Shown here one piece after another: positions 4,470 to 36,950 of a stretch of DNA of 64,000 nucleotides. Position 1 is the first letter of the stretch. Every line of letters begins with the position of its first letter. The stretch comes from a virus. The stretch lies in IMG/VR virus record IMGVR_UViG_3300048854_000232, positions 32,618-96,617 of that record; one strand, 5' to 3'. Below the pieces are notes generated by a model. The model saw nothing but the letters and a program-made list of their open reading frames with translations. It searched no databases and was not told where the DNA came from. The position numbers and the translations under genes were made by a program.

Positions 4470-4562
4470 GGCTTTATGCCGTTACTCTTTTTAAGTGAAA
4501 ATAAACACAGGGCAAATATGGTTTGTGAAATCCACCCCCATCACTTATAAGAGGCAAGGAAG

Positions 4563-5510
4563 ATGTTCGAACCGAAAACCTTCTGGGACCAGCGCTCGGC
4601 GCTGAACGAATCGTTGATCATGCACCTGCTGGACATCGTCGGTGCGGCTGATCCGGACATGCACAACCAGATCTCGGCACGCTGGATGGGTCAGCAATCG
4701 CAGCTGAAGAACTTCGAAGTGCGCCGTATCCTCGGTGCGCCGGGTGTGATCGATGGCACCACGGTCGCCGACGAGGACTGGATCAACGAGCTGCTCCAGC
4801 AGAACCTCGGTAAGGAGTACTTCTCCGGCGTTGACACCTTCGAAGCCCCAGCCGATGCGATCGGTCAGGACAGCGAAGCCTACGTCTCGTGGCTGGCCAA
4901 CCTGCCGGACTTCCACCAGAACCTCAGCGCCGATATCGCGCCGGGCTTCTACCGCGAGCAGGCCGGTGACTCGGTCGGTGTGCTGCTGGTCTTCGTGGCC
5001 AATGACATGCTCTACGCCATCGCGGCGGCAGCCTACCTCAACATCCAGCAGATCTCGCTCAAGCATCTGCCGGAAGTGTTCAGCTGGCGGAACGGTTACT
5101 TCCGCAGCGAGTTCTTCGACTACCGCAACGATCTGACCCGTGATGAGGTCGTCTACGCCCTGGGCCGCGCGCTCTACAGCGAAGGCTTCAACACCACGCT
5201 GGTCCACGGTCTCACGACCGAGGCCATGGTGAAGGCCGAACGCCAGCTGCTCGAACTGGACGTACCCACGGTCAAGCCGACGATCAAGGAAGCGGCGCTC
5301 GTGGTCGTTGAGCAGAAGCCCGAAGAACTCGACGGGACCAAGGCAGCCAACGACGATGTCGGTGAAGTCGATCTGCCCTGGGAAGCCGGTGAAGATGTCA
5401 CGCCAGCCGAAACGACCACGACGGCCCGGGGCATGAACGTGCCCTATGTCCACATCGACGATCCGGTCTTTACCGAGGTCACGAACGATAACCCGGAGCA
5501 GCCTGCTTAA
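4563..5510 (+). CDS. Hypothetical protein with acidic C-terminal tail
   Basis: 315 aa, AAGGAAG RBS, typical codon usage. Confidence 0.85.
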   Translation: MFEPKTFWDQRSALNESLIMHLLDIVGAADPDMHNQISARWMGQQSQLKNFEVRRILGAPGVIDGTTVADEDWINELLQQNLGKEYFSGVDTFEAPADAIGQDSEAYVSWLANLPDFHQNLSADIAPGFYREQAGDSVGVLLVFVANDMLYAIAAAAYLNIQQISLKHLPEVFSWRNGYFRSEFFDYRNDLTRDEVVYALGRALYSEGFNTTLVHGLTTEAMVKAERQLLELDVPTVKPTIKEAALVVVEQKPEELDGTKAANDDVGEVDLPWEAGEDVTPAETTTTARGMNVPYVHIDDPVFTEVTNDNPEQPA

Positions 5511-5542
5511 GGCTGCTCCACCAGACAACAAGAAGGGCTATC

Positions 5543-7060
5543 ATGCTCAGCGAGTTTTTCCAACCGGCGCCGCGTGTGCGCCCCTTCCTCAATTGCGGCT
5601 GCCTGTTCGATATTCCCACCGGTCGCTACCTGAAGGGTAAGCACGGCGAGTACATCCTGAACGGCGGTCTGTCGTATATCACCGGTATCGGTGGCCGCGG
5701 CAACATGTTCAAGTCGGTCATCGCCAACTTCATGATCCTGCGCCCTATGGACCGGCTCCAGCGCACCATGGGGCAGTTCCACGACACCGAGACCTCACTC
5801 ACGGCCAACCGTGTCTACCAGCTGGCCCAGCACATGCCCAACATCGGCGGCGTGGACCTGGAGTCCGAAGGACGCCTGTTGGTCTCGGACAACACCTCGA
5901 TGTCCGGCAACGAGTGGTTCGACAAGACCCGCGACATGGGTCTGGCCAAGGCCAAGGACTACAAGAAGTACACGATGACCACGCCGTTCATCGATGAGAA
6001 GACCGGCAAGTTCATCGAAACGTTGATCCCGACCTTCTCGCTGTGCGATTCGTTCTCGATGATGGTCACCGACTCCGTCGAGAAGATCTACGACGAGAAC
6101 CAGATCGGCGACTCCGGCGCCAACACCGACTCCATGCGTTTGTCCGCCGCCAAGTCGCAGATGCTCATGCAGCTGCCCTCGGTCACGGGCAAGGCCAACA
6201 TCTACATGGTGTTGACCGCGCACGTGGGTGATGACATCCCGCTCGACCCGAAGGCGCCGCCGGCCCGCAAGCTGACCTTCCTGAAGGGTAAGGCCAAGTT
6301 CAAGCACGTGCCCGAGAAGTTCACGTTCCTGACCAACAACCTGTGGTACGCCACTGCGTCGGCCCCGCTGATCAACGACGGCACCAAGGCGCCGGAGTTC
6401 CCGCGTAACACCGACGATAACCTGAAGGGTGATACCGATCTCATGATCATCACCTTGCAGAACCTGCGTGCGAAGAACGGACCGACGGGCATGCCCTTCC
6501 AGGTCATCGTCTCCCAGCGCGAAGGTGTCCAGGTTGGTCTGACCGAGTTCTTCTATATCCGTTCGTTCGATCGTTACGGGTTGGAAGGCAACGTGCAGAA
6601 CTACCAGCTGGCTCTGGTGCCGGACGTCAACCTGTCCCGCACCACCGTTCGTGGCAAGATCGAAACCAACGTCAAGCTTCAGCGTGCGTTGGAGATCATG
6701 TCCGAGATGTGCCAGATGGACCAGATCGGCTTCCAGGCCGAGGGCATGACCGAAGAAGCCAGCCGCAAGCTCATCTGCACGCCCAAGCAGCTGTACGATG
6801 ATCTGAAGGCCAAGGGCTACGACTGGGACCGTCTGCTCGATACCCGCGGTTACTGGGTGTTCGAAGAAGACGCGGGCGGCGAGAAGCCGTTTCTGTCCAC
6901 GCTGGATCTGCTGCGCATGCGCGTGGACGAATACCGGCCGTGGTGGTACGACGGCGACGACTCGGCAACGGTCGTTAAGAAGGGCCTGGCCAAGGCCATC
7001 AAGAAAGCAGGCACGGCCGAAGAAGAAGCCCTGCTGAAAGAACTCACCACCACCAAGTGA
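5543..7060 (+). CDS. uvsX: UvsX/RecA-like recombinase (phiKZ gp152-like)
   Basis: Walker A variant GRGNMFKS, FHDTE motif, Walker B region LCDSFS; ~500 aa and synteny with RNase H and the RNAP fragment. Confidence 0.85.
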   Translation: MLSEFFQPAPRVRPFLNCGCLFDIPTGRYLKGKHGEYILNGGLSYITGIGGRGNMFKSVIANFMILRPMDRLQRTMGQFHDTETSLTANRVYQLAQHMPNIGGVDLESEGRLLVSDNTSMSGNEWFDKTRDMGLAKAKDYKKYTMTTPFIDEKTGKFIETLIPTFSLCDSFSMMVTDSVEKIYDENQIGDSGANTDSMRLSAAKSQMLMQLPSVTGKANIYMVLTAHVGDDIPLDPKAPPARKLTFLKGKAKFKHVPEKFTFLTNNLWYATASAPLINDGTKAPEFPRNTDDNLKGDTDLMIITLQNLRAKNGPTGMPFQVIVSQREGVQVGLTEFFYIRSFDRYGLEGNVQNYQLALVPDVNLSRTTVRGKIETNVKLQRALEIMSEMCQMDQIGFQAEGMTEEASRKLICTPKQLYDDLKAKGYDWDRLLDTRGYWVFEEDAGGEKPFLSTLDLLRMRVDEYRPWWYDGDDSATVVKKGLAKAIKKAGTAEEEALLKELTTTK

Positions 7061-21516: not shown

Positions 21517-24500
21517 TTACGTTTGCGCGATACCACGTTTGACCGAGATGGGCGCCTGCGCCGCCTTTTCGACGAGCGGACGATTGCCTCGGGTCGGAGC
21601 GGGAATCGAAGCTGCCGCGACATCTGCACCGGACGAATCCGACGATGCCGTGTTGCCGTGAATCCCGCCGAGCAACGCAACCTGCTGCTGGGAGGCGTCG
21701 ACCAACTGACCGAGCAACTTCACCTGCTGACTCATGAGGTCAGAAATGGTGTTGAGCTGGGCGTTGTTATCGGCGCTGACCTGCTTGCTGCGTGCATCGG
21801 CTGCGGCACCTTGCTGGGCGACGGTCTGGCGTTGCGCCGCGACGTAGTCGTCCTGGTTGGAACTGGCCTTGACCACCGACGTGGTGGGGGCCGACAGGGC
21901 AAGCCCGGAGGACTTGTTCATATCCGGCGCCGGGTTGGAGGCGTAGGTGGCCGAGGTTGTTGCCTGATCGGACGCACCCTTCGCCGCCACACTGCCGGCA
22001 CCTGGACCTGTGGGCAGATCACTGAGTGGGTCACCGGTCTTAGCCGAAGCCGGGGCAGGCGTTGCACCTGCGCCACCGGTGGCTGCCGGAGCAGCCTTCT
22101 TCGCAGCAGCGAGTTCAGCCGAGGACATGCCTGCGTCAAACTTCGCATTGCCACGCACCTTCTTATCCAGCACCGCCATGAGCTCATCGCGCGTACGCGG
22201 CGAACCGTTGGAGCTGTAGAAGATGCTGCCGTTGTTACCTGCAGCGGCCGGGTTGATCTGGGCCGCAATCGCGTTACCGCCTGCGGTCAGCATCTGCACC
22301 GCACCACCTGCGCCCAAGAAGTGAGCAGCGTACAGTTCCGTGTCGGTCGGGTCTCGACCAATGCGGCGCTTCAGGTAGTCGCGGTTCTGCTTCAGGAACT
22401 CCGCACCCATCAGGGCGTTAGCACGTGGATCAAACGGAGAGGTGTTCGGATCGATCCCGTACTTCTGTCCGTACTTGGCCAGCATGCCCTGCCAGGTTTC
22501 GTTGGTGAATTGGAACAGTCCCTTGGCCGAACCCTTCGGCGGCTTCGCTGTCGGATTGAACCCGGATTCGATACTGGCAAAGGTCGCCATCATCCCCGGA
22601 TCCACGCCGGCCATCTTGGCCGCTGCCACGATCGTGGCCTTCATCGAGTCCCATCCTTTACTGCCCTGTGCCGGCAGGGGGATGTTGTTGATGTCGCCAC
22701 CGGTACCGTTACCCGGCTGCGGGATGATCTTACCAATCGGGCTACCATCGGAAGCCGTCCCGGAGACATCGTTCGCATCCGCGACAAGGTTCGTCGAGGC
22801 CTTGACCTGGTTCGGGCTGACCCGGAACGCGGCGGCGGAACTGGCGGCACCACCGGCAGACGCGGACGCACCGCCGGCCGAGGCCGAAGCCATGGGCTTG
22901 CCGTTCGCACCGTTGATCTTACCGTTGGCCGCATCCAACTTGGCCGTCTGCTCGTTGTAGGTCTGCTGCTTGATCGCGGTCTTCAGCGCAAGCAGGTTAG
23001 CCTCCACCGCCTTACTATCCGCATTCAGCGGCTGATCATCGAACGGCGAGACCGTCGCGGTCCAGACCGACACGGCAACGTCCTTGACCTTACCCGTCGT
23101 GGCGATGACCGCATTGGCCACATCCAGGAGCTGAGCACCGGTCAGGTAGTTTTCCGCATCACCCGGATCGACGTTCTTGTTCGCCTTCTTGACCGCCGAG
23201 GCAAACTGCAGCATGACCGGGACAAAGCGTTCGGAGAACCACTCGATCCAGCTGGCCCGCATCTTCGGATCCGAGGGCGAGATCCCGAAGGACCCTGCGT
23301 ACTTGGTGAAGAGCTCATCCGGCTTGTCGTCGAACGTGGCCAGTCCATTGGTGTCATAGGTCAGGGTCGGCAGCAGGTCGGCTTCCATACCGTACAGGGC
23401 TTTGACGCGATCGACCTGGAGGTTAACCAAGCCGTAGGTCTTCAGTCGAATGACCAGCAAGGAGGACAAGGTCGAGGACAGCATGACTGCCTTCGGACCG
23501 GCCGTACCCTTCGCCGTCAACCCACTGGCCGTCGAGGCCGCAGCCAAGGCTGCCGCTACGTGGCGAGACTTATCCGCTTCACCCAGGTTCACTTCCCCAG
23601 CCGCCTGACCCAGATCGGTCTTGGCCATGCCCGGGAGCTTCTTCGCACCTGCCACCGCCAGTGCACCGGCGGTCGCCGGCGTGATGCCGTCCTTACCCTT
23701 GGACTTGTCATCCTTCTTCGCTTCCGCGTCGAGGATGCCCTTGACTTCCTTGAAGGCATCGTTGACTGTGTCAGCCGTAGCCGTCAGCGGGTCGTCACCA
23801 AAGGGCGAGTCCATCAGGCCGTAGATGCTCGCATCCACCGCTTGCGCGGCAGCAATCATCTTCTGCTTGGTGGCTGCATCCAGCTTATCGTCCAGGTCCG
23901 CCAGATCGACCTTACCGGCCATGTTCTGCTTGGCCGCCATCCAGGTGATGAACACCGGCTTGAAGCGCTGGTTGAACCAACGCAGCAGGGCAATGTGGTT
24001 CTGCCCATCGCCTTCGTCCGAGTGCCCCCAATGGAACGGGTTGTACCAGGACGCATCGATGCCGAAGATCTTCGGCAGCTCCGCCGGGTCGAAGCCCTTC
24101 ATGTCGATCGAGCCGCCCGTGGGACCCACACTGACGTGATCCTTGAGCATGTCTTCCAGCTCGAGGACTTTCTTCATCGGCCACACGTTCTGGTTGATGT
24201 CGACACCGTACTGGGCCATACGCACTTTACGCAGTGGCTGGGACTTCTTGAGGTTGTAGTACTGGACACCCTTGTAGATACCGTAGCCTACCGCCGCAAC
24301 GGCTGCTGCCCCCAAGACCACCGGCGCAGAGATCACGCTACCGATAGCACCGGCCGCGGTGGCAATACCGCTACCCACCGCACCGGCAGCCGAGGCTACA
24401 CCACCGGCTGCCGTGGCGATACCGCCGCCGACTGCACTGAGCGCACCACCCATCTCGCCGACACCCAAGAGCGCTGCACCGCCGCGGACCAAACCACCAC

Positions 24501-27500
24501 CCGCACGCAGGATACCGCCGCCGGCTCGCGCCAGACCGCTAGCCCCGCGACCCACCAGAGCGCCGGCACGGCTGTTGGCCAGACGACCCACCAACTTACC
24601 GACGCGACTGCCACCCAGCTTGTTCCAGCCCTTGCCAAGCAGACGCCCCAACTTCGAACGGCTGAGCTTGCGTCCCGCGTTCTTCATCCAGGCCTTGGCG
24701 TTACGACCGAACGTACCACGGGCTGCGCGCTTGCCACCGGTTTCGATGTCAATGCTGTTGCCGTCTTCGTCTTTCTCTTCGTCGTCATCGTGCTTGCCGA
24801 ACTTGTTCTTCAGCCACGACCACAGACCACCCGAGGACGCTGCCGCTGCCGGCGTGGCGCCTGCGGGGTTACCCTTAGCACCCTTCTTGCGCTGCTGGTC
24901 CTGCCACGAGCCCGAGCGGATGTGCTCGGCCGCTGGGAGGCGTGCATCCAAGACCTGGAAGATCTTCTCCAGCAACGTGGTGGACTTGGTCGAATAGACC
25001 TCGAACACCTTTGGGTTGAAGATACCGCCCAGACGCTTGAAGATCCCCGTCACCGCATCCATGCCAAAGCCCAACACGGCACCGGTGGCACGCATCGAAC
25101 CGCGAAGCAGGCTACCGGCCAGGCCGATGGTCCCACCGACCGCGCCGAAGAGCTTACCAAGGATGGACTTGAACGGCTTACCGCGAACATCGCAGATACC
25201 CTTCTTAAGGTCCTCCATCGTCAGACGGATCACCTCATCCTTACCCTTGGTCAGTTCGACCACTTCACCGCGGATGTCTTTGGGACGGCGGATCTGTTTA
25301 CGGGAGCGACGGTCGTAGTAAGCACCCGCTTCCATCAGCGTGGCATAAAGCTTGGGCTCGTTCATCTCACCGACGACATAGACGTCGCGGGCCCGCTGGG
25401 CGTAGTCACGCAGTGCGCCGAGGCCCTTGCCAACCAGGCCCAAGGCCTTGAAGGGAAGCGAGACCATCGTGCCGTAGTAACTGCCGAACATCTTCAGGCC
25501 CTTCCAGGCCGAACCTAGCGCAAGCTTGACCAGATGGCCACCGCGCTTGTAGTAGACACCCTTCTCGTAGTCGGTCTGCGACAGGACCACGTTACCGTCC
25601 GCATCGACGACCGGACCCTTGATGTCACCGATCTTGCGAATCACCTTACCGGTGGCTTGGTCCTTGTAGGCCCCGTTCTTCATGCCCTTGGCATAGAGCG
25701 CGGGTTCGGACTCACCCTTGACCATGATGTCCGAGACGAAGTTGGTCAGCCCACGAGCCACCCCACCTGCCAGACGAGCACCACCGCCAATGACCGAACC
25801 GATGGCGCCGTAGGTCCCCTTGAAGTACGCACCGAGTCCTTTCAGACCCATGCGACCGGCACCCATGACGCCACCAGCGAGCTTACCACCCCAACGACCG
25901 AAGAGGCCAAAGCGGGTGAGCTTACCGGCATCGCCCGTCAGGCCTTCACCACCCGCCCCGGAGGCGGCAATGGCAATCAGCTGGTGCAAGGCTTCGAGCT
26001 GTTCCTTACTCTCCTCGGTCCGATGGGCATCGCCTTCGGCCACGAGCTTGAGCAGTTCCGAATACGCCCCACCACCGCCTTCGGCCGAGTACTTCGGCTC
26101 GGTCGGGGCAAAGCCACCCATGAGCTTGGAAGCCCCACCGGCGCCGGAGACCATCCGATCGTGATCGGCAATGACCTTCGCTGCTTCGGTAGCCGAGAGC
26201 ACGACCTTGCCGGCCTTGTCGACGACGCCTTCAGCAATCTGACTTAAGCTGGTAATCGCCTCACCCGTCTTGGCCGAAATGAACTCGCCCTTGTTGGAGA
26301 GGATCGCCCGTGCCTTGCCCAACGGACCCGCAGCTTTCGCCAGGAGGTCTTCACCGAACGAACGACTCGAGGTCGCGGCAGTGCTAGCGGCGTTCTTGAC
26401 AGTCTTGCCCAGGCCCGCCCAGTTGAAGCCACCCGGACGCATAGCGGGACCCGGACCCGAAGGACCTGCACCGCCCGGACTCGGTCCTGCGCTACCCGAA
26501 GGCATCGACGGATCGTGGCCAGCCATGATCTCCAACACCTTGTCGAAGTTCACGTGGTCGTTGGAGCCGTTACGGGTGATCAAGCCCAGCTCATCCAGGA
26601 GCTCGCGGTTACCGGTCTGCATGTAGGCCCGGATGATCTGCGTCGGGTCACCGACGTAGGACTGCATCGAGCGGAACGCATCGGAGGTGCGCTGGGTCTT
26701 CACCCAGTCGGTCTTGCCTCCCACCATGAAGTGGTTCTGGAAGTGCTTGCCCAGTTCTTTCTTGTGGGTATCGCTCAACTGGCTAACGTCGTCGCCGTGA
26801 ATGAACCGGTCCGGGTCGAACGCTTTACCTTGGGCGGTATCCGAGAGCAGCTGCTTCTGGAGCGCTTTACGCGTGCCGTCGGAAAGCTTGCCCTGAGGAT
26901 CGATCTGGGACATCACCTGCTTCAACCCGTAATGGGTCATGTCCAGGCTGGACTTGCTGAACAGGCGGTTCTTGGCATCGTTGGCCGCCGCCGACTTACT
27001 GGTGAACTCACCCTTGTCCATGTTGAACACGGTGGGCTTGATCGACGCATCACCAGTGCGCAGGATCTGCAGCTCGTTGTGAATCCGCGACAGGAAGCCA
27101 GGGATCACTTCGGTCAGACTGCGACGGGCCTGGTTATTGAACCCCACGGCCTCATCGGCGTTGTTGATCGGCGCCTCACCCACCTTGGTGTCTTGCGACA
27201 TGCGTGGGGTGACGTTCTTGAAGAAGCGCACGAACGAGCCGAGCTTGCCGTAATCACCACGGTCCGAGCGGGCCCACTTGTTGGCTTGCTCAGGCAAGGT
27301 GTCGAGCAGGTAAGCCAACCGCGCACCGAAGCTTTGCGCACCCGGCACCTTCTCAACCTTACCACGCGCCCAGCGTCCCGCCTTTCGACCCAGATGCGAG
27401 GCAGCGAAGTCACCAGCGAGATGGCCAGCCAGTTGGTGGCCACTCATGCCCATGTCGCCCATCATGCTGCCCATGTCCATGGCAGACTCCGCGCCCATCG

Positions 27501-28440
27501 CGCCCATGTGCACACCGGAGAGGGCGGCTTTCAGGGAGGTCTTGAGATTGGCCTGGAGCTTGGAGCCGAACTTACCCACGTAATCGACGATCGCCTGCTG
27601 GGAGCGGCCGTAGAGCTTGTCACGCAGGGTGCTGCCGTACTGCTCGGACTGCTTGACCTTGACCGCATCAGGCAGTGCCGTGTTCTTGACGATCGCATCC
27701 AACTGCGCGGCCATCTTGACCGACATGTCCGCACCTTGATTACGGATATCCCGCAAGGTGAAGAACGAGCGCATCTGGAACTCCAGCGACTTCTGCTGGT
27801 AGCGGGCGTTGACCTGGTCCTGGTAGGCGACCAGGCGATCGATACCGTGCCGCATAGCGGAAAAATGGAAAGCGGACTTACGTTCGCGCTTGTCCACGAT
27901 GTCCTGACGGATCATCTCGGCCGATTGGTTGGTGGCATGTTGCCGCGCACTCTCTTCCATCTGGACGCGGAAGATGCCGGCGAGCTCGGCACTGATTTGT
28001 CCTGCGTCGATCTCTCCCTGGGTCGGTGCACGATAGCCAGGCTTGTTCTTAGCGAACGCTTCCAGGCGCTTGATCGTGGAGTCCGGCAGGAAAGAACGGA
28101 CCTTCGGCGTGACCTTCTCCACCGCTTTTCGGGCGACAGGAAGCAGGGGCCGGAGATCTTGGGCGGCGCTATTGTATAGCTCCCGTACGCCCTGTACGGC
28201 GGAATCGGCGGCATTGATTGCCGTTCCGTATCCCTTCGGCATGGCGTCGGAAATCGCACGTTTGATGAAGCTCTTGCTCGTGACTTGTGCACGCGCGCCC
28301 TCGGCAAAACCGACGGCAATCTTCTCGATGGGCTTGCGGTCTTTCTTCTGGGCTTTACCCTCACCGGGCAGCTGGTACTCGTCGAAATTCAAATCGTCGA
28401 GATCCATCTTCCCCAGAGGGGTGATCTTTTTACTAGCCAT
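21517..28440 (-). CDS. Large tail-associated protein with C-terminal lytic transglycosylase (SLT) domain (phiKZ gp181-like)
   Basis: 2307 aa; SLT motifs ASIESGFNP, AKGLFQF and LYAAHFLG at ~22290-22640; hydrophobic Gly/Ala segment; divergent from the RNAP beta' gene. Confidence 0.9.
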   Translation of the reverse strand: MASKKITPLGKMDLDDLNFDEYQLPGEGKAQKKDRKPIEKIAVGFAEGARAQVTSKSFIKRAISDAMPKGYGTAINAADSAVQGVRELYNSAAQDLRPLLPVARKAVEKVTPKVRSFLPDSTIKRLEAFAKNKPGYRAPTQGEIDAGQISAELAGIFRVQMEESARQHATNQSAEMIRQDIVDKRERKSAFHFSAMRHGIDRLVAYQDQVNARYQQKSLEFQMRSFFTLRDIRNQGADMSVKMAAQLDAIVKNTALPDAVKVKQSEQYGSTLRDKLYGRSQQAIVDYVGKFGSKLQANLKTSLKAALSGVHMGAMGAESAMDMGSMMGDMGMSGHQLAGHLAGDFAASHLGRKAGRWARGKVEKVPGAQSFGARLAYLLDTLPEQANKWARSDRGDYGKLGSFVRFFKNVTPRMSQDTKVGEAPINNADEAVGFNNQARRSLTEVIPGFLSRIHNELQILRTGDASIKPTVFNMDKGEFTSKSAAANDAKNRLFSKSSLDMTHYGLKQVMSQIDPQGKLSDGTRKALQKQLLSDTAQGKAFDPDRFIHGDDVSQLSDTHKKELGKHFQNHFMVGGKTDWVKTQRTSDAFRSMQSYVGDPTQIIRAYMQTGNRELLDELGLITRNGSNDHVNFDKVLEIMAGHDPSMPSGSAGPSPGGAGPSGPGPAMRPGGFNWAGLGKTVKNAASTAATSSRSFGEDLLAKAAGPLGKARAILSNKGEFISAKTGEAITSLSQIAEGVVDKAGKVVLSATEAAKVIADHDRMVSGAGGASKLMGGFAPTEPKYSAEGGGGAYSELLKLVAEGDAHRTEESKEQLEALHQLIAIAASGAGGEGLTGDAGKLTRFGLFGRWGGKLAGGVMGAGRMGLKGLGAYFKGTYGAIGSVIGGGARLAGGVARGLTNFVSDIMVKGESEPALYAKGMKNGAYKDQATGKVIRKIGDIKGPVVDADGNVVLSQTDYEKGVYYKRGGHLVKLALGSAWKGLKMFGSYYGTMVSLPFKALGLVGKGLGALRDYAQRARDVYVVGEMNEPKLYATLMEAGAYYDRRSRKQIRRPKDIRGEVVELTKGKDEVIRLTMEDLKKGICDVRGKPFKSILGKLFGAVGGTIGLAGSLLRGSMRATGAVLGFGMDAVTGIFKRLGGIFNPKVFEVYSTKSTTLLEKIFQVLDARLPAAEHIRSGSWQDQQRKKGAKGNPAGATPAAAASSGGLWSWLKNKFGKHDDDEEKDEDGNSIDIETGGKRAARGTFGRNAKAWMKNAGRKLSRSKLGRLLGKGWNKLGGSRVGKLVGRLANSRAGALVGRGASGLARAGGGILRAGGGLVRGGAALLGVGEMGGALSAVGGGIATAAGGVASAAGAVGSGIATAAGAIGSVISAPVVLGAAAVAAVGYGIYKGVQYYNLKKSQPLRKVRMAQYGVDINQNVWPMKKVLELEDMLKDHVSVGPTGGSIDMKGFDPAELPKIFGIDASWYNPFHWGHSDEGDGQNHIALLRWFNQRFKPVFITWMAAKQNMAGKVDLADLDDKLDAATKQKMIAAAQAVDASIYGLMDSPFGDDPLTATADTVNDAFKEVKGILDAEAKKDDKSKGKDGITPATAGALAVAGAKKLPGMAKTDLGQAAGEVNLGEADKSRHVAAALAAASTASGLTAKGTAGPKAVMLSSTLSSLLVIRLKTYGLVNLQVDRVKALYGMEADLLPTLTYDTNGLATFDDKPDELFTKYAGSFGISPSDPKMRASWIEWFSERFVPVMLQFASAVKKANKNVDPGDAENYLTGAQLLDVANAVIATTGKVKDVAVSVWTATVSPFDDQPLNADSKAVEANLLALKTAIKQQTYNEQTAKLDAANGKINGANGKPMASASAGGASASAGGAASSAAAFRVSPNQVKASTNLVADANDVSGTASDGSPIGKIIPQPGNGTGGDINNIPLPAQGSKGWDSMKATIVAAAKMAGVDPGMMATFASIESGFNPTAKPPKGSAKGLFQFTNETWQGMLAKYGQKYGIDPNTSPFDPRANALMGAEFLKQNRDYLKRRIGRDPTDTELYAAHFLGAGGAVQMLTAGGNAIAAQINPAAAGNNGSIFYSSNGSPRTRDELMAVLDKKVRGNAKFDAGMSSAELAAAKKAAPAATGGAGATPAPASAKTGDPLSDLPTGPGAGSVAAKGASDQATTSATYASNPAPDMNKSSGLALSAPTTSVVKASSNQDDYVAAQRQTVAQQGAAADARSKQVSADNNAQLNTISDLMSQQVKLLGQLVDASQQQVALLGGIHGNTASSDSSGADVAAASIPAPTRGNRPLVEKAAQAPISVKRGIAQT

Positions 28441-28507
28441 AAAAGTCTCCAGGCCCTAGACGTATATGTAGCTTCGGTTCATAAGTTAAGGAGTGAGGAC
28501 CCTCCTC

Positions 28508-29963
28508 ATGAATACTGCCATGCTTCCCTTCAACGTCGAGATCATGAACATCGACCGTAATAAGGTTGCTCACCTGAAGCCGGTGACCAGCCTGGACTAT
28601 TACGAGAACGTCGGTGGCGACCTCCACGGGGACGGTTTGTTCTCGGTCGAGATCTTCGGCCGGGTCGGTGAGGAAAGCCGCGACAAGCGCTTCTCCTACA
28701 TCGATCTCAAGACCCAGATTTTCCACCCGGTCATCTACCAAGCGCTGTGCAAGCTGAAGGGTCTCTACCAAGGCATCCTGGCAGGCACGGCTTTCGCGAC
28801 CTGGGACCCGATCACCAAGGACTTCAAAGCCGCCGACGAATTGGTCGGAGAGACCGGCTATGCGTTCTTCATCTCTCACTGGAAAGAGATCGCCTTTGCT
28901 GGCAACAAGTCCGGCATCCGTGACGCTCGCATCCAGCTGGTCGAGAAGTACCGTGACCGTGCGTTGTGCGACAAGATCCTGGTCATGCCTGCGGGCTTGC
29001 GGGATATCGAAGTCGGCGACGACGGCCGGACGGTCGTGGGTGATATCAACACCTTCTACCGCAAGATCATCTCGATCAGCAAAACCATCACCACCACCGA
29101 ACACGGTGCGCAGTCCCGTACGCTGAACCTGCCGCGGCATTTGCTCCAGCAGACCTTCAACGAGATCTACGGCACGATCGAGACCATGCTCACGGGCAAG
29201 TACGGCTTCCTGCAGTCCAAGTGGGGTAGCCGGCGTATCTTCAACGGTACGCGAAACGTGATCACGGCGATGGATACCTCCACCGAAGTGCTGGGTGGCC
29301 GCAATGCCCCCAAGTATACAGACACGATCCTGGGCTTGTACCAGGCGATCAAGTCCCTCGGCGCGGTGTCGGTGCATCTGCTCAAGACCGGTTACCTGGC
29401 TCAGATCTTTGCCCCGGGCAACGGTTACGCCAATCTGGTGGACCCGACGACCTACAAGGGCGTGCAGGTCAAGCTTGCTTCGGATACCTTTGACCGTTAC
29501 ACGACGGTGGAAGGGCTGGAGAAAGTCATCTCCAGTTACGGCGAGACCACGCTGCGCGCAAAACCGGTAATGGCCGATGGCTATTACCTGGCGCTTATCT
29601 ATGCCGGTCCGGACCGCACCTTCAAGGTCTTCTCCTCGATCGATGAGTTGCCCGAAGGGTTCGATCGCAAATTCGTCCGTCCCATCAACCTGGTCGAACT
29701 GATCTACCTCTCCGGTTACCGGAAGTGGAATGATTACGTAGGCTTCGTCACCCGCTACCCGGTCACCGGTACGGGCAGCTGCTACCCCTCCACCTTGTAC
29801 GTCAAGACCACGATCGTGGGCGAGATGCGCAGGGAATTGGATGAGGAGTGGCGGGTCTCGGACGAAGATGCGGTCGCGCTGGAATTCCCCACCTACGAGA
29901 CGCTGGCCTATCTGGATTCCCAGGTGGTCTCCAGTGCACGTCTTAAAGGTTTGGGTGCTGACT
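28508..29963 (+). CDS. rpoC: Virion RNA polymerase beta' subunit (phiKZ gp180-like), exon 1
   Basis: RpoC-like GLFSVEIFG, ILVMPAGLRD, GRRIFNGTRNVIT and RYP motifs; ends ...ARLKGLGAD-T. Alternative GTG start at 28493. Confidence 0.9.
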
Positions 29964-30361
29964 TAACGCTTCACTAGGTCCTTGTGGGGGTAACCCTACT
30001 CGAAAAACTCTTCTAATTGCTGGAAACTCTCGTTTGAACATGGCGCGCGACAACGTAATCCGAAAGGGTCAGCGTGAGCGCATGAGAAGCCGTCATGTAG
30101 AGACAATCAGCAGCCAAGTCCCTAACGCTCGAACGTGTCGTCCTCCACGGGAAAGTTACGGGAAAGGTTCAACGACTAGGCGAAAGCCGTAGGGTCAAGT
30201 GACCCGAAATGGAGAGCATCCGTGAGCTGCTGGATAGCGCTGCGGATGAAGATATAGTCTGGCCATGCAGGGTGACCTGCAGCTGTTTGTGTTGCCTGCC
30301 CCTCCCTCCCCTCGGGCAGCACGAGCGCGCCGGTTCTAACGAAACCGGTGGAACACACGCG
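29964..30361 (+). ncRNA. Group I self-splicing intron (IA-type, 398 nt, no ORF) in the RNAP beta' DFDGD codons
   Basis: P AATTGCTGGAAA 30015-30026, Q AATCAGCAG 30105-30113, R GTTCAACGACTA 30167-30178, S AAGATATAGTC 30249-30259; exon GACU pairs with intron GGUC (U-G at splice site); terminal G30361; splicing restores GAC TTC GAC GGC GAT. Confidence 0.93.
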
Positions 30362-30528
30362 TCGACGGCGATACGAGTTCTTGGAACGCGATCGTCGGTG
30401 ATGAATCCTTACGAGAAGTCAAAGAGTTCCTGGACTCCAAGGCCGCTTACGTTGACCCGCGCGGTGGCTTACATGCCTCCGCTGATGTGGCAACGGTGGC
30501 CCTGGTCCTGCAGAACATGACCGGCTAA
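30362..30528 (+). CDS. rpoC: Virion RNA polymerase beta' subunit, exon 2 (not in the ORF track)
   Basis: After splicing reads (D)FDGDTSSWNAIVGDESLREVKEFLDSKAAYVDPRGGLHASADVATVALVLQNMTG-stop; spliced product ~540 aa. Confidence 0.9.
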
Positions 30529-30548
30529 CCGCACCACGAGGTTGACCC

Positions 30549-33500
30549 ATGATGATCCTTTACCCCCAGTACTACCGACAGCACGGCATTCGTCGTGCCG
30601 TGCAGTTGGTGGCCCCGACCTTGAGTCGGATGGAAACGCTGGACCTGCCCCAGGGCAGCATCCTGCACTTTGTCGCCCAAGACGAGTCGCAGTACGGCAT
30701 GCCCCAGGACGACTACCTCCTTCGCCATGTTTCGCGGATGATGTACGTCGACCATGTCAAGGAGCTGGGCGATAACAAAGGCAACCCGCGTCCGACGCGG
30801 CAGCCGCCCAACCAGATGATCCGGGACTACCAGCGGAAGTACCGCCGTACGCGTGCGCTGACCAACATCGATGCCCTGCTGCGCGATCCGCGCACGCTGG
30901 TGATCGAGAACTATGCGCTGCTGCCGCATCTCTTCCGTTACACGACCAGCTACTTCCGCAACTACTACAAGTGGTGGAACATCCAAGCCGCCATGTGGGC
31001 GCGGGTGGGCGAGCTGGACGTGAAGGCCGATCGTCAGCAGTACCTGGAATGCTACCTACCTACCATCCTTCCGTCGTTGGGCCAACTCCGCAAGGGCGAG
31101 GCCTACACCAACCGGTCGACCATTGCCGCGTTCGCACAGAACGAGTCGATGTTCATCCTGGAAGTGTGGAAGTGGCTGGGTGAGCACCGTGAGACCTCCG
31201 TGCTGGCCAAGGCGGGTCCTCGCAACCTGTCGAAGATGAACCTCATCTGGACCCAGTCCGATAAGTGGTTCATCATGAACCTGGGTCTGCTGGACCAGTG
31301 GCGTCGTCCCTCGGAGACCGAGCTCAAAGCCGGTGCTGATCCCAAGCACGGGATTGTCGATCCGCAGATGATGCAGAAGCGCTTCTTGCGTGCTCTGATG
31401 TTCCTCTTCGAATCGGGTACGGTCGCCGGTGGTGAAGCGAAGGCTGTGGCGGAGGCGACGATCGTTGCCCCGACCGCCGATGGCACGACCAAGGAGCCCA
31501 CGGGCGAGGTCAAGGCGGTCGACGTGCCGCTGAAGATCGCGATGCCGCATCCGGACGATCCGAACAAGACCAAGCTGATCACGATCAAGCCGGGCCTGAA
31601 CATCGATAACTTCCCGGACCATCCGGTGGAAGAGACCGCGGACAACATGCGGTTGATCGATGAGGCCATCACCAAGGACCTGGACGCCCTGGCTCATCTG
31701 CACCTGGATCAGGTCGAAGATGAGCTGACCGGTGAAGACGGTGAGCCGCCGGTGGACGTGCCCCAGGCGATGATCAACTATGTCGCTGAGCAGCGTACCC
31801 TGGAATCGGCCATCATGGCCAAGGCGGATGCCCTGGTCGATGACGGTCTGCTCTCGGGTGCGGAGTATCGCCGGTTGATGGCGGTCTCCTCGGCGTATAA
31901 GAAGATCCCCGATCCGTACGGCTCCGGTCAGACCCTGGAAGTCCAGGCGCAGATCGATGTGCAGAACCTGGTGATCTCCGATGCCCCGTCGATTCCCGAT
32001 AGCGTCAGCATCGTGGACAAGTCGATGCTGAAGACCAGCTTGGCACACTTTGACACCAAGTACGTCAACGAGGTCATGCCCAAGGACATCACCAACATGG
32101 TGCTGGGTATCCAGCACGGTGGCGTGGGTGTTACCGGTTACCAGATCGAACACATCGAAGACGCACTCAACAGTTACACCTCGCACACGGTCAACCTGGT
32201 GCCGGTCACGGGCAAGCCCTCGACCATCCGCTTCCGGTTGCCCAAGGTCGAGGACGACGGCACGTTCCGTGCCGGTGGCGTGCGCTACCGTCTGCGTAAG
32301 CAGCGCGGTGACATGCCCATTCGTAAGCTCTCCCCCGAGAAAGTGGCCCTGACCAGTTACTACGCGAAGATCTTCGTTTCCCGTAGCGATAAGCAGGTGC
32401 ACAACTACCCGGGTTGGCTGACCAACCAGATCGCTGCACGCGGTATGGATCCGACCAACGAGGACGTGGACCACCTGATGGTCTCGGACGTGTTCAAGCG
32501 GGAATACCGCACGCCACGTCTGTACTCGATCCTGGCCGCACGCTTCCGCTCCTTTGAGCTGCCCAAGTACGACATGCAGTTCTTCCTGGACTACGCCGCT
32601 CGTTATAAGCAGTTCGGCGAAGAGCGGGTCAAGGCAGCTGAGAAGTCGGGCATGACGGTGATCGGTCGTTCGGGCGGTTACAGTCGGTCGGGTGGTAAGG
32701 ATGCCTACAGCCTAATCCTGGTCGACCAGAACGATGTGCTTTACCAGACCAACTTCGACAACGACGAAGAGATCGCGGTGCGTGGGACCATGGAATCGCT
32801 GCTCGAGTTGGATCGCCGCAAGGCACCAGCTGAAGTGGCGGTACTGAAGGTCTTCAATAAGCTCGTCCCGGTCGGCATGTTCTTGGCCTACCAGATGGGT
32901 CTGTCGCGCCTGTTCGAAGTACTCGGTGTGAATCCCCGTCGCGTGCCCTCGGGTGAACGTGTCAACCTCTCCGATGACGAGTACGTCCTGAAGTTCCAGG
33001 ACGAGCAGTTGGTGTTCCCCAAGGAACATCGTCTGGCCGCTCTGATCCTGGCCGGTATCGGCACCTACGAGAACGCCACTAGCAACTACCCGGTACATCT
33101 GTTCGATCGCAAAGACATCTACCTCAACGTGCTGGATCAGGCGGGGGTGGGTGCCAGGTACTTGCGTGAAATGGATCTGATGGTCGAGATGTTTGTCGAT
33201 CCCATCACCCGCGAACTGCTGGAAGACATGCACGAGCCGCTGGACTTCATTGGTCTGGTCATCCGGGCCTGTGAGCTGCTGCAGACCGATTGGTCGCCCG
33301 ATGAAACCGACATGGCCTTCATGCGCATCAAGGGCTACGAGCGTATGGCCGGTGCGGTGTATTCCGAATTGGTGAACGCGGTCCGTGGTCATCGTGCCCG
33401 CAGCTCCTCGAACGCCTCGATCGAACTGTCGCCCTACGCCGTGTGGACTGCCGTTGCGCAGGACTCCTCGGTCAAGCTGGTCGAAGACTCCAACCCGGTG

Positions 33501-33782
33501 CACAACCTCAAAGAACGTGAAGAGCTCACCTACTCCGGTACCGGTGGTCGCTCGGCACGCTCGATGGTCAGCGCCACGCGTGTGTATCACCCCAACGACA
33601 TGGGCGTCATCTCGGAGGCCACCAAGGACTCCGCTGACGTGGCGATCACCACGTTCACCACGGCCGATCCGAACCTGAAGAACCTGCGCGGTGTCACCGG
33701 CCGGTACGAGAAGGGGAACCTGGGTCCGGCCTCGTTGCTGTCTACCTCGGCGCTCCTGGCCCCGGCAGCGACCCGTGATGAT
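30549..33782 (+). CDS. rpoB: Virion RNA polymerase beta subunit (phiKZ gp178-like), exon 1
   Basis: 1078 codons; RpoB-like GTGGRSARSM and YHPNDMGVISEAT; ends TRDD. Confidence 0.9.
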
Positions 33783-34150
33783 TAAAGAGTTAGAAGCAAC
33801 CGCTTTTAACTCTACGGTCCGCTTACATGGAAACGTGTAAGTGAACTCTCCTTAATTGCTGGGACCTCCTTAGAGCCTCACTACCACTGCGAGTCGAAAG
33901 ACAAAGCGACGGTTTGAAAAGTGTGAGGATTGGACAATCAGCAGCGAAGCCCTGTTAATCGGGGAACGTTCATCGACTAAGGCTTTATCAGCCGGTACCC
34001 GTCAAGCGATGGGGAAATGGGAGACACCCTTTAAGCACTCTGATCTAGACAGAAATTGCCAAGGGTGAAGATATAGTCAGCTCTGCATGGAAACATGCAG
34101 CTGCTCCGCAAGGAGCGGGGTAGGGTTTGCGGCCCTGCCTGAACATAAGG
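33783..34150 (+). ncRNA. Group I self-splicing intron (IA-type, 368 nt, no ORF) in RNAP beta
   Basis: P AATTGCTGGGA 33854-33864, Q AATCAGCAG 33936-33944, R GTTCATCGACTA 33968-33979, S AAGATATAGTC 34068-34078; 5' exon ends in U, intron ends in G; splicing gives in-frame DD|PKRVNFISIQ. Confidence 0.92.
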
Positions 34151-35278
34151 CCAAAACGTGTCAACTTCATCTCCATCCAGCAGTCGGCTGGTACCTTCGC
34201 TAAGGGCTACGTGCCCTCGCCGCTGCGTACCGGTTACGAGCAGATCCTGGCCCACCGTACCGATGACCTCTACGCCTACACGGCCAAGAAGCCCGGTAAG
34301 ATCACCCGCCTCACGGCGCAAGCGATCACGGTGACCCACGAGGACGGTTCGGTCAAGACGATCGAGCTGGGTCGTCGCTTTGGTGTGGCGGCAGGTACGA
34401 TTCTCCCCCATGCGGTGGAGACCCGACTCAAAGTCGGTGATGAGGTGAAGCTGGGTGATATCGTTGCCTACAACCGTAACTACTTCCAGATTGACCCGCT
34501 GAACCCCAAGCAGGTCGTGTGGAAGGCTGGTGTCTTGGTCAAGACTGCGATCATGGAATCGACCGATACATTGGAAGACTCCTCCGCTATCTCGGAAGAG
34601 GTGGCGGGCCTCATGGAAACGCAGATCACCAAGATCCGCGATGTCCAGGTGGCGTTCGATCAGTCCGTACGCAATCTGCTGCCGGTGGGAACCCCGGTGG
34701 AAGTCGAGAGTATTTTATGTACAATCGAAGATGCGGTCACGGCGCAGAGCAATCTGCTGGATAGCGACTCGCTGGATACCTTGCGATTGATCTCGGCCAA
34801 TACCCCTCGGGCGAAAGTCAAGGGCGTGATCGAGAAGATCGAGGTGTTCTACAACGGAGACATCGACGAGCTGTCGCCTTCGTTGCAGGAATTGGCACAA
34901 GCTTCCGACCGTGAACGTAAACGCACTGCCCGTGAACTGGGCAAGACCTACACCCCAGGCCGCGTGGATGACTCGCTGCGTGTGGATGGCAACCCGCTGC
35001 CGCCGGATAACCTGGTGGTGCGGATGTACATCACCAGCGATATGTCCGCTGGCGTGGGTGACAAGGGCGTGTTCGGCAACCAGCTGAAGACGATCCATGG
35101 TCGAGTGATGTCGGGCAAGAACGAGACCGAGTCTGGTCAGCCCATCGGTGCGATCTTCGGTTACCAGAGTATCTCCGACCGTATTGTGTATTCGCCGGAA
35201 ATCATCGGTACCACCAATACGCTTCTCAAGATCATTTCCAAACGCATGGTCGCCGCTTACTACGGGAAACTGAAATGA
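34151..35278 (+). CDS. rpoB: Virion RNA polymerase beta subunit, exon 2
   Basis: Contains EDSSAIS and VGDKGVFGNQLKT (RpoB GDK motif); spliced beta is 1453 aa. Confidence 0.9.
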   Translation, partial: PKRVNFISIQQSAGTFAKGYVPSPLRTGYEQILAHRTDDLYAYTAKKPGKITRLTAQAITVTHEDGSVKTIELGRRFGVAAGTILPHAVETRLKVGDEVKLGDIVAYNRNYFQIDPLNPKQVVWKAGVLVKTAIMESTDTLEDSSAISEEVAGLMETQITKIRDVQVAFDQSVRNLLPVGTPVEVESILCTIEDAVTAQSNLLDSDSLDTLRLISANTPRAKVKGVIEKIEVFYNGDIDELSPSLQELAQASDRERKRTARELGKTYTPGRVDDSLRVDGNPLPPDNLVVRMYITSDMSAGVGDKGVFGNQLKTIHGRVMSGKNETESGQPIGAIFGYQSISDRIVYSPEIIGTTNTLLKIISKRMVAAYYGKLK

Positions 35279-35487
35279 AAGACAAAAAAGCCGAGCAGTC
35301 CGCGCTCGAAGCCAACCTCCCGGTGATTGTCAATGCCGTGGAACTGGTGTCGCAGGTCGTGGCGCAGGTGGCCGGTAACGCCATCTCCAACATGATCGAC
35401 GGCAAGATCGTCACCCCGACGGTCCTCCAGGGAACCGTGGCGGCGCGCCTGCAATCCATCCTCAACTCGCAGACGGGAGCACGCTGA
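35275..35487 (+). CDS. Small hypothetical protein
   Basis: 70 aa; overlaps the upstream stop (ATGA) and the downstream start (TGATG). Confidence 0.7.
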   Translation: MKDKKAEQSALEANLPVIVNAVELVSQVVAQVAGNAISNMIDGKIVTPTVLQGTVAARLQSILNSQTGAR

Positions 35488-36950
35488 TGCTTACCAAAAG
35501 TTCGCTGATCGCCAGCTTCCCGCTGGCCCAGCAGCTGGCCATGAACGGTGCCCAGTTGGCTCCGGTGGGTGACAGCCCGCTGGCCGCGCTGGTCTCGGCC
35601 AGCCTGGTGGACGCGCAGACCGTGGGCGATGCCCCGGCCGGTACGTTCGAAGAGCAGCCCGAACTGGGCGAGCTCATGCTCCAGTCCTCGGCCAACGCCG
35701 ACATGGCGGGCGTGTGTCAGCACGACGCGATCATGGCCAACACGGTGGCCGCGGTCAGCAAGGCCGTGGAGAAGAACCTCGACCTGGCTCGCAACGTCGT
35801 CGGGCCGCTGATCAAGAAGGTGGTCGAAGACACCCAGGCCTACATGGACAGCACCGCGCAGTCCTCGCTGGCCCCGATGTCGATCTCCCCGTTCTACTAC
35901 CAGAGCCTGTGGGACAACCCGACCACGGTCGACTTCGTCCGCAAGTTCGAGAATGCCCCGGTGACCCCGGTCGCTCTCTCGGGTCTGACCCTGCCCGCGC
36001 CGACCTCGGCGCTGGAAGCAATGCTCACCGGTGCTGGCAGCTATGATGCCGACATCAAGGCATTCGTCGACGCGGTCGGTGAAGAGTACCTTCAGGGCGT
36101 CTGGCGCTCGGTGTTCGGTGGTGGCGTCAGCCAGCTGTCCGATTACCTGCGCTGGAGCCAGGACAAGATCGATGCGACCCTGGCGACGTTCCTCTTCGCC
36201 CGTCGTCTCTTCGACGATGTCCCCGAAGGCCTCAACATGGACCTGTCCGCGTACAAGGCGTACATGGGTGCCGTGGTGGGTTTCGCTGGCCGTCTGTGCT
36301 GCGCGATCTACAAGAAGCGTGAAGCCGACGTCGGTATCAAGGCGCTGGTCAATGCGATGCCGGTCGGTGGCCAGGGTTCGATCCAGGTCAACGGCGATGT
36401 CTACCAGTCCTTCCTCGAAGCCGGTGGTTCGCCGGAAGTCCTCTTCGGCGCCGCCGTGAGCGACGGTCAGCGTAACTTCGCGACCCTGCTGGAAGCCAAG
36501 GACCGCTACGTGCGGGAATGGCAGCGTACCTACGCCCTGCTGCAGAGCAAGGCGGCTTCGGTGCGTCTGGACAGCATGATCAGCGGCCTGCGTGGCGCCC
36601 TGGTCTGCCTGCTGAAGGATGAGTCGCTGGGCTTCGAGCTCTCGGCTGATATCTACCAGCAGCGGATCAAGGAGCGTCTGGCCAAGATCAAGCCCAAGGA
36701 CATCGAGGACATCTGGCACGTCGCCCGCAAGGCCGTCTGCCGCGTGTTCTACCCGCAGACCGACGTCGAGCGCGTGCTCAACGCCGTGGACGCCTCGGCT
36801 CTGGCACACCCGGAGCTGGACATCCGTGAAGCGGGTCTGCTGGCCACGATCGACTTCGTGGCAGCCTGGGTGGCCGATCTGATGACGGTCACGCTGCTCT
36901 CGGACATGGGCCGTCCGCCGGAACGTACGGCTAAGTTCTTCGGAGCCTAA
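35487..36950 (+). CDS. Conserved phiKZ-like protein (gp177-like position), possibly head morphogenesis
   Basis: 487 aa, strong codon bias, lies between RNAP beta and the head protease. Confidence 0.7.
   Translation: MLTKSSLIASFPLAQQLAMNGAQLAPVGDSPLAALVSASLVDAQTVGDAPAGTFEEQPELGELMLQSSANADMAGVCQHDAIMANTVAAVSKAVEKNLDLARNVVGPLIKKVVEDTQAYMDSTAQSSLAPMSISPFYYQSLWDNPTTVDFVRKFENAPVTPVALSGLTLPAPTSALEAMLTGAGSYDADIKAFVDAVGEEYLQGVWRSVFGGGVSQLSDYLRWSQDKIDATLATFLFARRLFDDVPEGLNMDLSAYKAYMGAVVGFAGRLCCAIYKKREADVGIKALVNAMPVGGQGSIQVNGDVYQSFLEAGGSPEVLFGAAVSDGQRNFATLLEAKDRYVREWQRTYALLQSKAASVRLDSMISGLRGALVCLLKDESLGFELSADIYQQRIKERLAKIKPKDIEDIWHVARKAVCRVFYPQTDVERVLNAVDASALAHPELDIREAGLLATIDFVAAWVADLMTVTLLSDMGRPPERTAKFFGA

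Follow-up and report, generated by a model that had tools for sequence, protein, structure and literature searches.

The closest described counterpart of the intron analysed here interrupts gp180 of phage phiKZ, for which the source cited is reportedly Ceyssens et al. 2014. For the present comparison we relied on the phiKZ sequence itself, read here, and on secondary citations, which list introns in phiKZ gp55 and gp180 and name gp179 as an intron-encoded homing endonuclease (PMC11512511, PMC12676376). In the phiKZ record (NC_004629, about 186.2–187.8 kb), gp180, annotated as an RNA polymerase subunit and as 'structural head protein', stops right after a GAT codon (...LGAD-stop) and is followed by gp179, a 357-aa HNH_3 ORF (E 7e-9) near the 5′ end of an intron of about 1.4 kb; the ribozyme core scores 92.2 bits and is followed by ...ACG|TTC GAC GGG GAC, where an unannotated exon 2 begins. 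A long-read transcriptome study of phiKZ found no evidence, under its conditions, that the predicted introns are spliced (PMC10914365). A further case is the group I intron in the virion RNA polymerase (vRNAP) beta gene gp210 of PhiPA3. It borders the second Asp codon, phiKZ gp178 D1072, and encodes an active HNH nickase with a role in inter-phage competition (Birkholz et al. 2024, PMC11620839).

We analysed a window of 64,000 nt, positions 32,618–96,617 of IMG/VR record IMGVR_UViG_3300048854_000232 (294,599 bp, completeness rating 100%), and all coordinates below are those of the window unless another sequence is named. The source virus is an uncultured phiKZ-like jumbo phage from soil. Its ortholog of gp180 is split at the same DFDGD motif as in phiKZ, with a ribozyme core homologous to that of phiKZ (64% identity, the nearest of all compared) and with the same gp181-like and gp178-like neighbours. 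In contrast to the phiKZ intron, the insertion in the window measures 398 nt and has no ORF, and its predicted splice sites, GAC T|...|TC, lie 1 nt downstream of the phiKZ sites, GAT|...|TTC. An intron at this motif in phiKZ is already known, and the new element is an ORF-less member of the family displaced by one nucleotide. As phiKZ gp180 itself is cut by a homologous intron with gp179, the novelty of the locus is lowered, and the precedent in phiKZ-family RNA polymerase genes is stronger than the preliminary description of this DNA had stated. Current understanding is unchanged by these findings.

From sequence and comparison, we consider it highly probable (about 0.9) that 29964–30361 is a functional self-splicing group I intron of the IA type, without a homing-endonuclease gene, in the gp180 ortholog. 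The gene-level features are as follows.

21517–28440, minus strand: very large gp181-like protein of 2307 aa containing an SLT lytic transglycosylase domain (Pfam SLT, E 1e-9)
28493–29963, plus strand: exon 1 of the gp180 ortholog (vRNAP beta′, N-terminal part), ending GCT GAC T (PHROG 2986, phiKZ gp180)
29964–30361, plus strand: predicted group I intron, 398 nt, IA-like, without an endonuclease ORF (RF00028)
30362–30528, plus strand: exon 2, in which TC finishes a Phe codon and DGDTSSWNAIVG...QNMTG follows, with the stop TAA at 30526–30528 (PHROG 2986)
30549–35278, plus strand: gp178 ortholog (vRNAP beta), interrupted at 33783–34150 by a second group I intron, also ORF-less (PHROG 3148)

Orthology and synteny identify the interrupted gene as the N-terminal part of the virion RNA polymerase beta′ subunit, in agreement with the first reading of the sequence. 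Exon 1 has two candidate starts, GTG 28493 and ATG 28508, and its similarity to phiKZ gp180 begins at the latter; identity is 40% over all 490 residues (E 7e-131), and both proteins end ...LGAD. The PHROG 2986 profile, 539 positions long, matches exon 1 at positions 1–484 (E 3e-183) and exon 2 at positions 486–538 (E 1.8e-10). Exon 2 is 41% identical to the unannotated exon 2 of phiKZ and colinear with uninterrupted orthologs, and it has no in-frame start codon of its own. Upstream, the gp181-like gene is divergent from the polymerase gene, and the same neighbour stands by gp180 in phiKZ, where the record names it the tail-associated endolysin gp181, and in five other phages. PHROGs were required for gene assignment, since Pfam gave no family for exon 1, exon 2 or the gp178-like protein; a PDB sequence search with exon 1 returned no match. 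Megablast of the gene against 50,697 phage records gave zero matches, so relatives were reached via protein-level and distant DNA searches only, with 314 phage records matched. By its orthology to phiKZ gp180, the protein would be packaged in the virion.

The open reading frame at 28493–29977 terminates ...GLGAD-LTLH-stop, just as the preliminary description had read it, and the Mg-binding DFDGD motif is present only once the intron is removed. Deleting 29964–30361 fuses ...GGT GCT GAC T to TC GAC GGC GAT and yields the reading ...GLGADFDGDTSSWNAIVGDESLREVK..., which restores DFDGD and adds the 55-aa exon proposed earlier. The spliced product would comprise 545 aa (...GLGADFDGDTSS..., also written ...LKGLGADFDGDTSSWNAIVGDESLREVK...QNMTG), with 55 residues, the split Phe included, contributed by exon 2. 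The predicted exon junction is ...GCTGACT|TCGACGGC... at the DNA level, the ligated exons would read ...GGTGCTGACT|TCGACGGCGAT..., and the junction peptide would be GLGADFDGDTSSWNAIVGDESLR.

These predicted boundaries are supported by three independent lines that agree with one another: the PHROG profile, the ortholog alignment and the uniqueness of the frame. As exon 1 matches profile positions up to 484 and exon 2 resumes at 486, the split Phe is the sole position of PHROG 2986 missing between them. Aligned with the uninterrupted orthologs of Xanthomonas phage Xoo-sp14, Salmonella phage SA002, Burkholderia phage FLC9 and Pseudomonas phage DT01, which read G(A/G)D(F/Y)DGD at this place, the spliced protein is free of gaps across the junction. 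We also tried other nearby pairs of a 5′ U and a 3′ G, none of which keeps the frame; phase-0 splice sites, or G30359 as the terminal G, break it as well.

The Infernal-type search with group I models that had been proposed for this locus recovered the family at a level far above chance: RF00028 matches 29954–30282 with 90.7 bits (E 6.4e-22, gathering score 50) over model positions 1–253 of 253. The intron has 56% G+C, and by blastn its P7–P9 core is similar to many T4-like phages. This match bears on the least credible of the alternatives we considered, namely that not RNA splicing but, for example, translational bypassing or frameshifting bridges the interruption. Nothing specific speaks for such bridging, the 398 nt match a ribozyme family in full, and no bypassing or frameshift signals are needed to account for them.

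The helices of the predicted intron could each be located, including the P1, P7, P7.1 and P7.2, GNRA-capped P9 and terminal G that had been claimed at the outset.

29960–29980, plus strand: P1, in which exon GACU (29960–29963) and intron UA pair with UAGGUC (29975–29980) (sequence, Rfam alignment, MFE fold)
29984–29999, plus strand: P2 hairpin with a GUAA loop (Rfam alignment, fold; compensatory changes in relatives)
30008–30013, plus strand: P3 5′ strand CUCUUC, pairing with GGAGAG at 30211–30216 (Rfam alignment, fold)
30017–30113, plus strand: P4 (UUGCUGG 30017–30023 with UCAGCAG 30107–30113) around P5 and a P5 extension of about 70 nt
30118–30164, plus strand: P6 with an extension (Rfam alignment, fold, consensus fold)
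30174–30178, plus strand: P7 5′ strand GACUA, R element GUUCAACGACUA (read from sequence)
30179–30188, plus strand: P7.1, GGC-GAAA-GCC (sequence, fold; covaries among homologs)
30192–30205, plus strand: P7.2, GGGUC-AAGU-GACCC (sequence, fold; covaries among homologs)
30217–30248, plus strand: P8, CAUCCG ... CGGAUG with an inner stem (fold, consensus fold)
30255–30259, plus strand: P7 3′ strand UAGUC, S element AAGAUAUAGUC (read from sequence)
30266–30281, plus strand: P9 hairpin UGCAGG-GUGA-CCUGCA with a GUGA (GNRA) loop (Rfam alignment, folds)
30283–30361, plus strand: two P9.1/P9.2-like peripheral hairpins on the 3′ side, then the conserved tail GAACACACGCG with the terminal G30361 as its last nucleotide

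In P1, the wobble U29963-G29977 marks the 5′ splice site, and the helix is extended by U29964-A29976 and A29965-U29975; a P10 pairing with the 3′ exon would amount to one base pair at most. The classical P and Q elements lie within the P4–P5 region (30017–30113), so that all four elements named in the preliminary description, P, Q, R (30174–30178) and S (30255–30259), have their place. The P7.1 and P7.2 hairpins between P7 and the 3′ strand of P3 typify subgroup IA in the Michel and Westhof classification, and the intron in the window would accordingly be called IA-like, by its helix inventory and not by a subgroup-specific model. The T4 introns in td, nrdB and sunY and other phage IA introns likewise combine a core containing P7.1 and P7.2 with an early in-frame stop, and introns of the T4 type, like the one in the window, sit at catalytic residues of an essential enzyme; their host genes differ, being those of nucleotide metabolism.

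A consensus fold of eight homologs contains 81 pairs. Double compensatory changes occur in 49 of these, which are spread over P3, P5, the P5 extension, P6, P7.1, P7.2, P8 and P9. Among the eight homologs, four of the six P3 pairs show double changes, and the strands of P7 are invariant in all. Being nearly invariant, P7 and P4 are uninformative for covariation, and P7 was identified by eye, since RNAalifold has no means of representing the P3/P7 pseudoknot. The minimum free energy of the whole intron is no better than that of shuffled sequences (z −1.4), a measure of low power in G+C-rich sequence; the 3′ domain at 30260–30361 has a fold z-score of −3.0, and its GAACA..CG tail is kept in relatives.

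In the proposed reaction, the guide AGGUC would pair with the exon end GACU, the wobble U29963-G29977 setting the 5′ splice site. The attack after U29963 would come from an external guanosine docked in P7, and the freed end of the 5′ exon would then attack after the terminal G30361. The ligated message, GAC-UUC-GAC-GGC-GAU, would encode a subunit of 545 aa with a complete Mg-binding DFDGD loop. An unspliced message, on the other hand, runs into UAG at 29975–29977, a stop that sits in the guide strand of P1 five codons into the intron, and its product of 494 aa retains only the first of the three aspartates. The earlier proposal that this read-through product would be a dead subunit is therefore sound. 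Because phiKZ-like phages depend on this enzyme at the onset of infection, splicing is presumably a prerequisite for an active virion polymerase and may, as the preliminary description proposed, be essential for infectious virions.

Four public sequencing runs were compared with the window over 28000–36000. The contig from the source sample (depth 15.7) shows no differences from the window. In another soil run, a DNA contig of about 92% identity spans the 5′ splice site, which indicates that a relative also carries the intron. Spliced joints were found in none of the four runs over 28000–36000. In the RNA-library run (X4), a contig of 304 nt covers 30020–30323 at depth 22.5 with no differences; as DNA can occur in such libraries, this is a weak hint of transcription. 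The only other covered part in X4 is 35728–35889; no contig lies on the exons or on the second intron. We rejected a reading of this pattern as accumulation of excised intron, because contigs are not a measure of abundance, the library may contain DNA and a gap in cover is no proof of absence. The contig at 35728–35889 lies inside the ORF 35487–36950 (162 nt, depth 3.6, no differences); 35 nt of it, 35734–35768, recur with three differences in unrelated contigs of two DNA runs.

The lack of a spliced joint in the four runs, like the phiKZ transcriptomics cited above, fits a different account of the locus, in which the intron is a decayed relic that does not splice and the gene is a pseudogene or its parts are made as separate polypeptides that assemble. 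The missing endonuclease ORF points the same way, as its loss precedes intron decay in the homing cycle. We regard this account as unlikely. Every core helix is intact, as are the R and S elements, and the score of 90.7 bits is close to that of phiKZ; both exons are open and conserved up to the junction, and exon 2 could not be started separately from an in-frame codon of its own. Moreover, an essential enzyme is unlikely to withstand an interruption of its Mg-binding loop, and the genome is rated 100% complete. We thus retain a functional intron as the preferred reading.

Besides phiKZ, homologous introns that pass RF00028 were found in two cultured jumbo phages of Xanthomonas, RTH11 (OQ790161) and vB_XciM_LucasX (MW825358), and in the IMG/VR contigs L010, L011, L014, L016 and L017. 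Those of RTH11, LucasX, L010, L011 and L014 are ORF-less, about 400 nt long and at the same motif as in the window. Their host genes are closest to that of the window (56–60% amino acid identity), and the introns share with it the P5 extension and the 3′ tail. They differ from it in forming a tight clade of their own (100/100 support), outside which the window intron falls, and in having phase-0 splice sites with the guide AAGUCC or AUGUCC.

In GenBank, the exons of the gp180 orthologs of RTH11 (L001 7468–7872) and LucasX (L002 7468–7872) are annotated as separate genes, with no intron, and the LucasX paper does not mention one (PMC9009655). The gp178 orthologs of these two phages seem to be split elsewhere, into a 434-aa piece, a gap and the rest, with no Rfam match in the gap. 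For annotation, the consequence is that the gp180-type subunit of the window, RTH11 and LucasX is, or would be, called as a truncated protein devoid of the catalytic aspartates plus an orphan small ORF. Recognition of the intron gives the correct 545-aa subunit for the phage studied here.

Relative to each of the eight other alleles that carry an intron, namely phiKZ, RTH11, LucasX, L010/L011, L014, L016, L017 and a third intron of the same genome, both predicted splice sites of the window are displaced 1 nt downstream: GAC T|intron|TC in the window compared with GAT|intron|TTC in the relatives. This uniformity is what favours another possibility, that the true sites are phase-0 as in the relatives and the shift is a misreading or an assembly error. 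We consider this very unlikely, more so than a decayed relic. With GAC as the Asp codon there is no U at the phase-0 position, and the 3′ exon has only TC before GAC, so that the frame would be shifted. The source-sample contig is identical to the window at depth 15.7. The guide has changed to match, being AGGUCC and not AAGUCC, and pairs with GACU. In the relatives the guide is (A/U)GUCC, the G of which wobbles with the U of GAU, whereas in the window that G pairs with the C of GAC and the G gained by the guide forms a wobble with the first U of the Phe codon.

The Asp codon is GAC in the window and also in all 12 intron-less alleles examined, and for this reason the observed product is the one that a guide GGUC would select in an intron-less message. 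In a maximum-likelihood tree of ten intron cores, the window intron, phiKZ, the third intron of this genome and the RTH11 clade form one polytomy. Its core is 64% identical to that of phiKZ compared with 57% to those of the phages with the nearest host gene, a difference that is not decisive. The shift may have come about by sliding, by re-insertion through reverse splicing or by an independent homing event.

Two more introns of this genome lie in RNA polymerase genes. Within the gp178 ortholog, the intron at 33783–34150 scores 89.8 bits with RF00028, and its removal joins ...ATRDD to PKRVNFISIQ, colinear with four uninterrupted orthologs. It appears to occupy the PhiPA3 gp210 intron site, after ...RDD, in line with the published description (Birkholz et al. 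2024). Like the intron in the gp180 ortholog, that of PhiPA3, also a phiKZ-like phage, belongs to group I and interrupts a virion RNA polymerase gene at conserved active-site aspartates; the subunit gene is a different one, and the PhiPA3 intron carries its nickase whereas those of the window have no nuclease (PMC11620839). The third intron, of 74.7 bits, splits NAD|FDGD of the non-virion (nvRNAP) beta′ paralog and lies outside the window (L009 1511–1931; genome C1 about 118841–119261). PHROG 2987 matches exon 1 of the paralog at profile positions 1–418 and exon 2 at 420–475, and the sites are GAT|...ACG|TTC. Because of this third intron, both beta′ paralogs of one genome, virion and non-virion, have the same motif interrupted, a situation also reported for phiKZ gp55 and gp180. 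In Serratia phage Yaphecito, a group I intron of 58.8 bits (L041 2949–3258) stands after DFDG| (GGT|AGAAG) of the RpoBC gene. Since the Yaphecito site lies 8 nt downstream of the usual one, several insertion positions exist within one motif. The beta′ DFDGD codons are a recurrent intron target in phiKZ-like phages, with at least three insertion positions within nine nucleotides.

Among 36 related loci for which both flanks were found, about 27 are uninterrupted (3-nt gap) and 8 have an insertion exactly at this site, a patchy presence and absence typical of a mobile intron. Together with the covariation, this pattern argues for a genuine, evolving ribozyme, gained and lost at a single homing site. 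The only ORFs overlapping the intron are of 52, 60 and 103 aa, none with a Pfam family, and with no endonuclease ORF the intron would no longer be self-mobile; it was probably inherited vertically or moved in trans. No relative of the HNH nuclease found at L017 was detected in this genome.

All three RNA polymerase sites that hold nuclease-bearing introns in phiKZ or PhiPA3 hold nuclease-free introns in this genome. By analogy with the findings of Birkholz et al., we speculate that occupancy of the site could remove the target of gp179-type nucleases of co-infecting phages, a possible advantage. Taken one step further, a tentative and rather doubtful proposal is that the 1-nt displacement reflects 'intron sliding' or reverse-splicing re-insertion and, separately, that the nuclease-free introns at the three sites act as a standing immunity. 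Introns with an intact nuclease (L017, phiKZ), with a deleted one (L016) and with no ORF (window, RTH11, LucasX) form a series that illustrates the homing cycle and is material for the study of intron-based competition and immunity between jumbo phages in the sense of Birkholz 2024.

Two HNH_3 matches were seen elsewhere in the genome, outside the window, at C1:223525-223683 (minus strand) and C1:187602-187721 (plus strand), in open frames of about 260 aa; both appear to be free-standing nucleases, and neither is within any of the three introns. L016 and L017 are closely related IMG/VR contigs with intron cores 91% identical. In L017, the intron is a 2.3-kb version with a 597-aa HNH_3/I-HmuI-like ORF (4558–6351), and L016 has the same ORF (4558–5184) minus its middle, including the HNH domain, with both ends kept (208 aa, no domain), a snapshot of nuclease decay.
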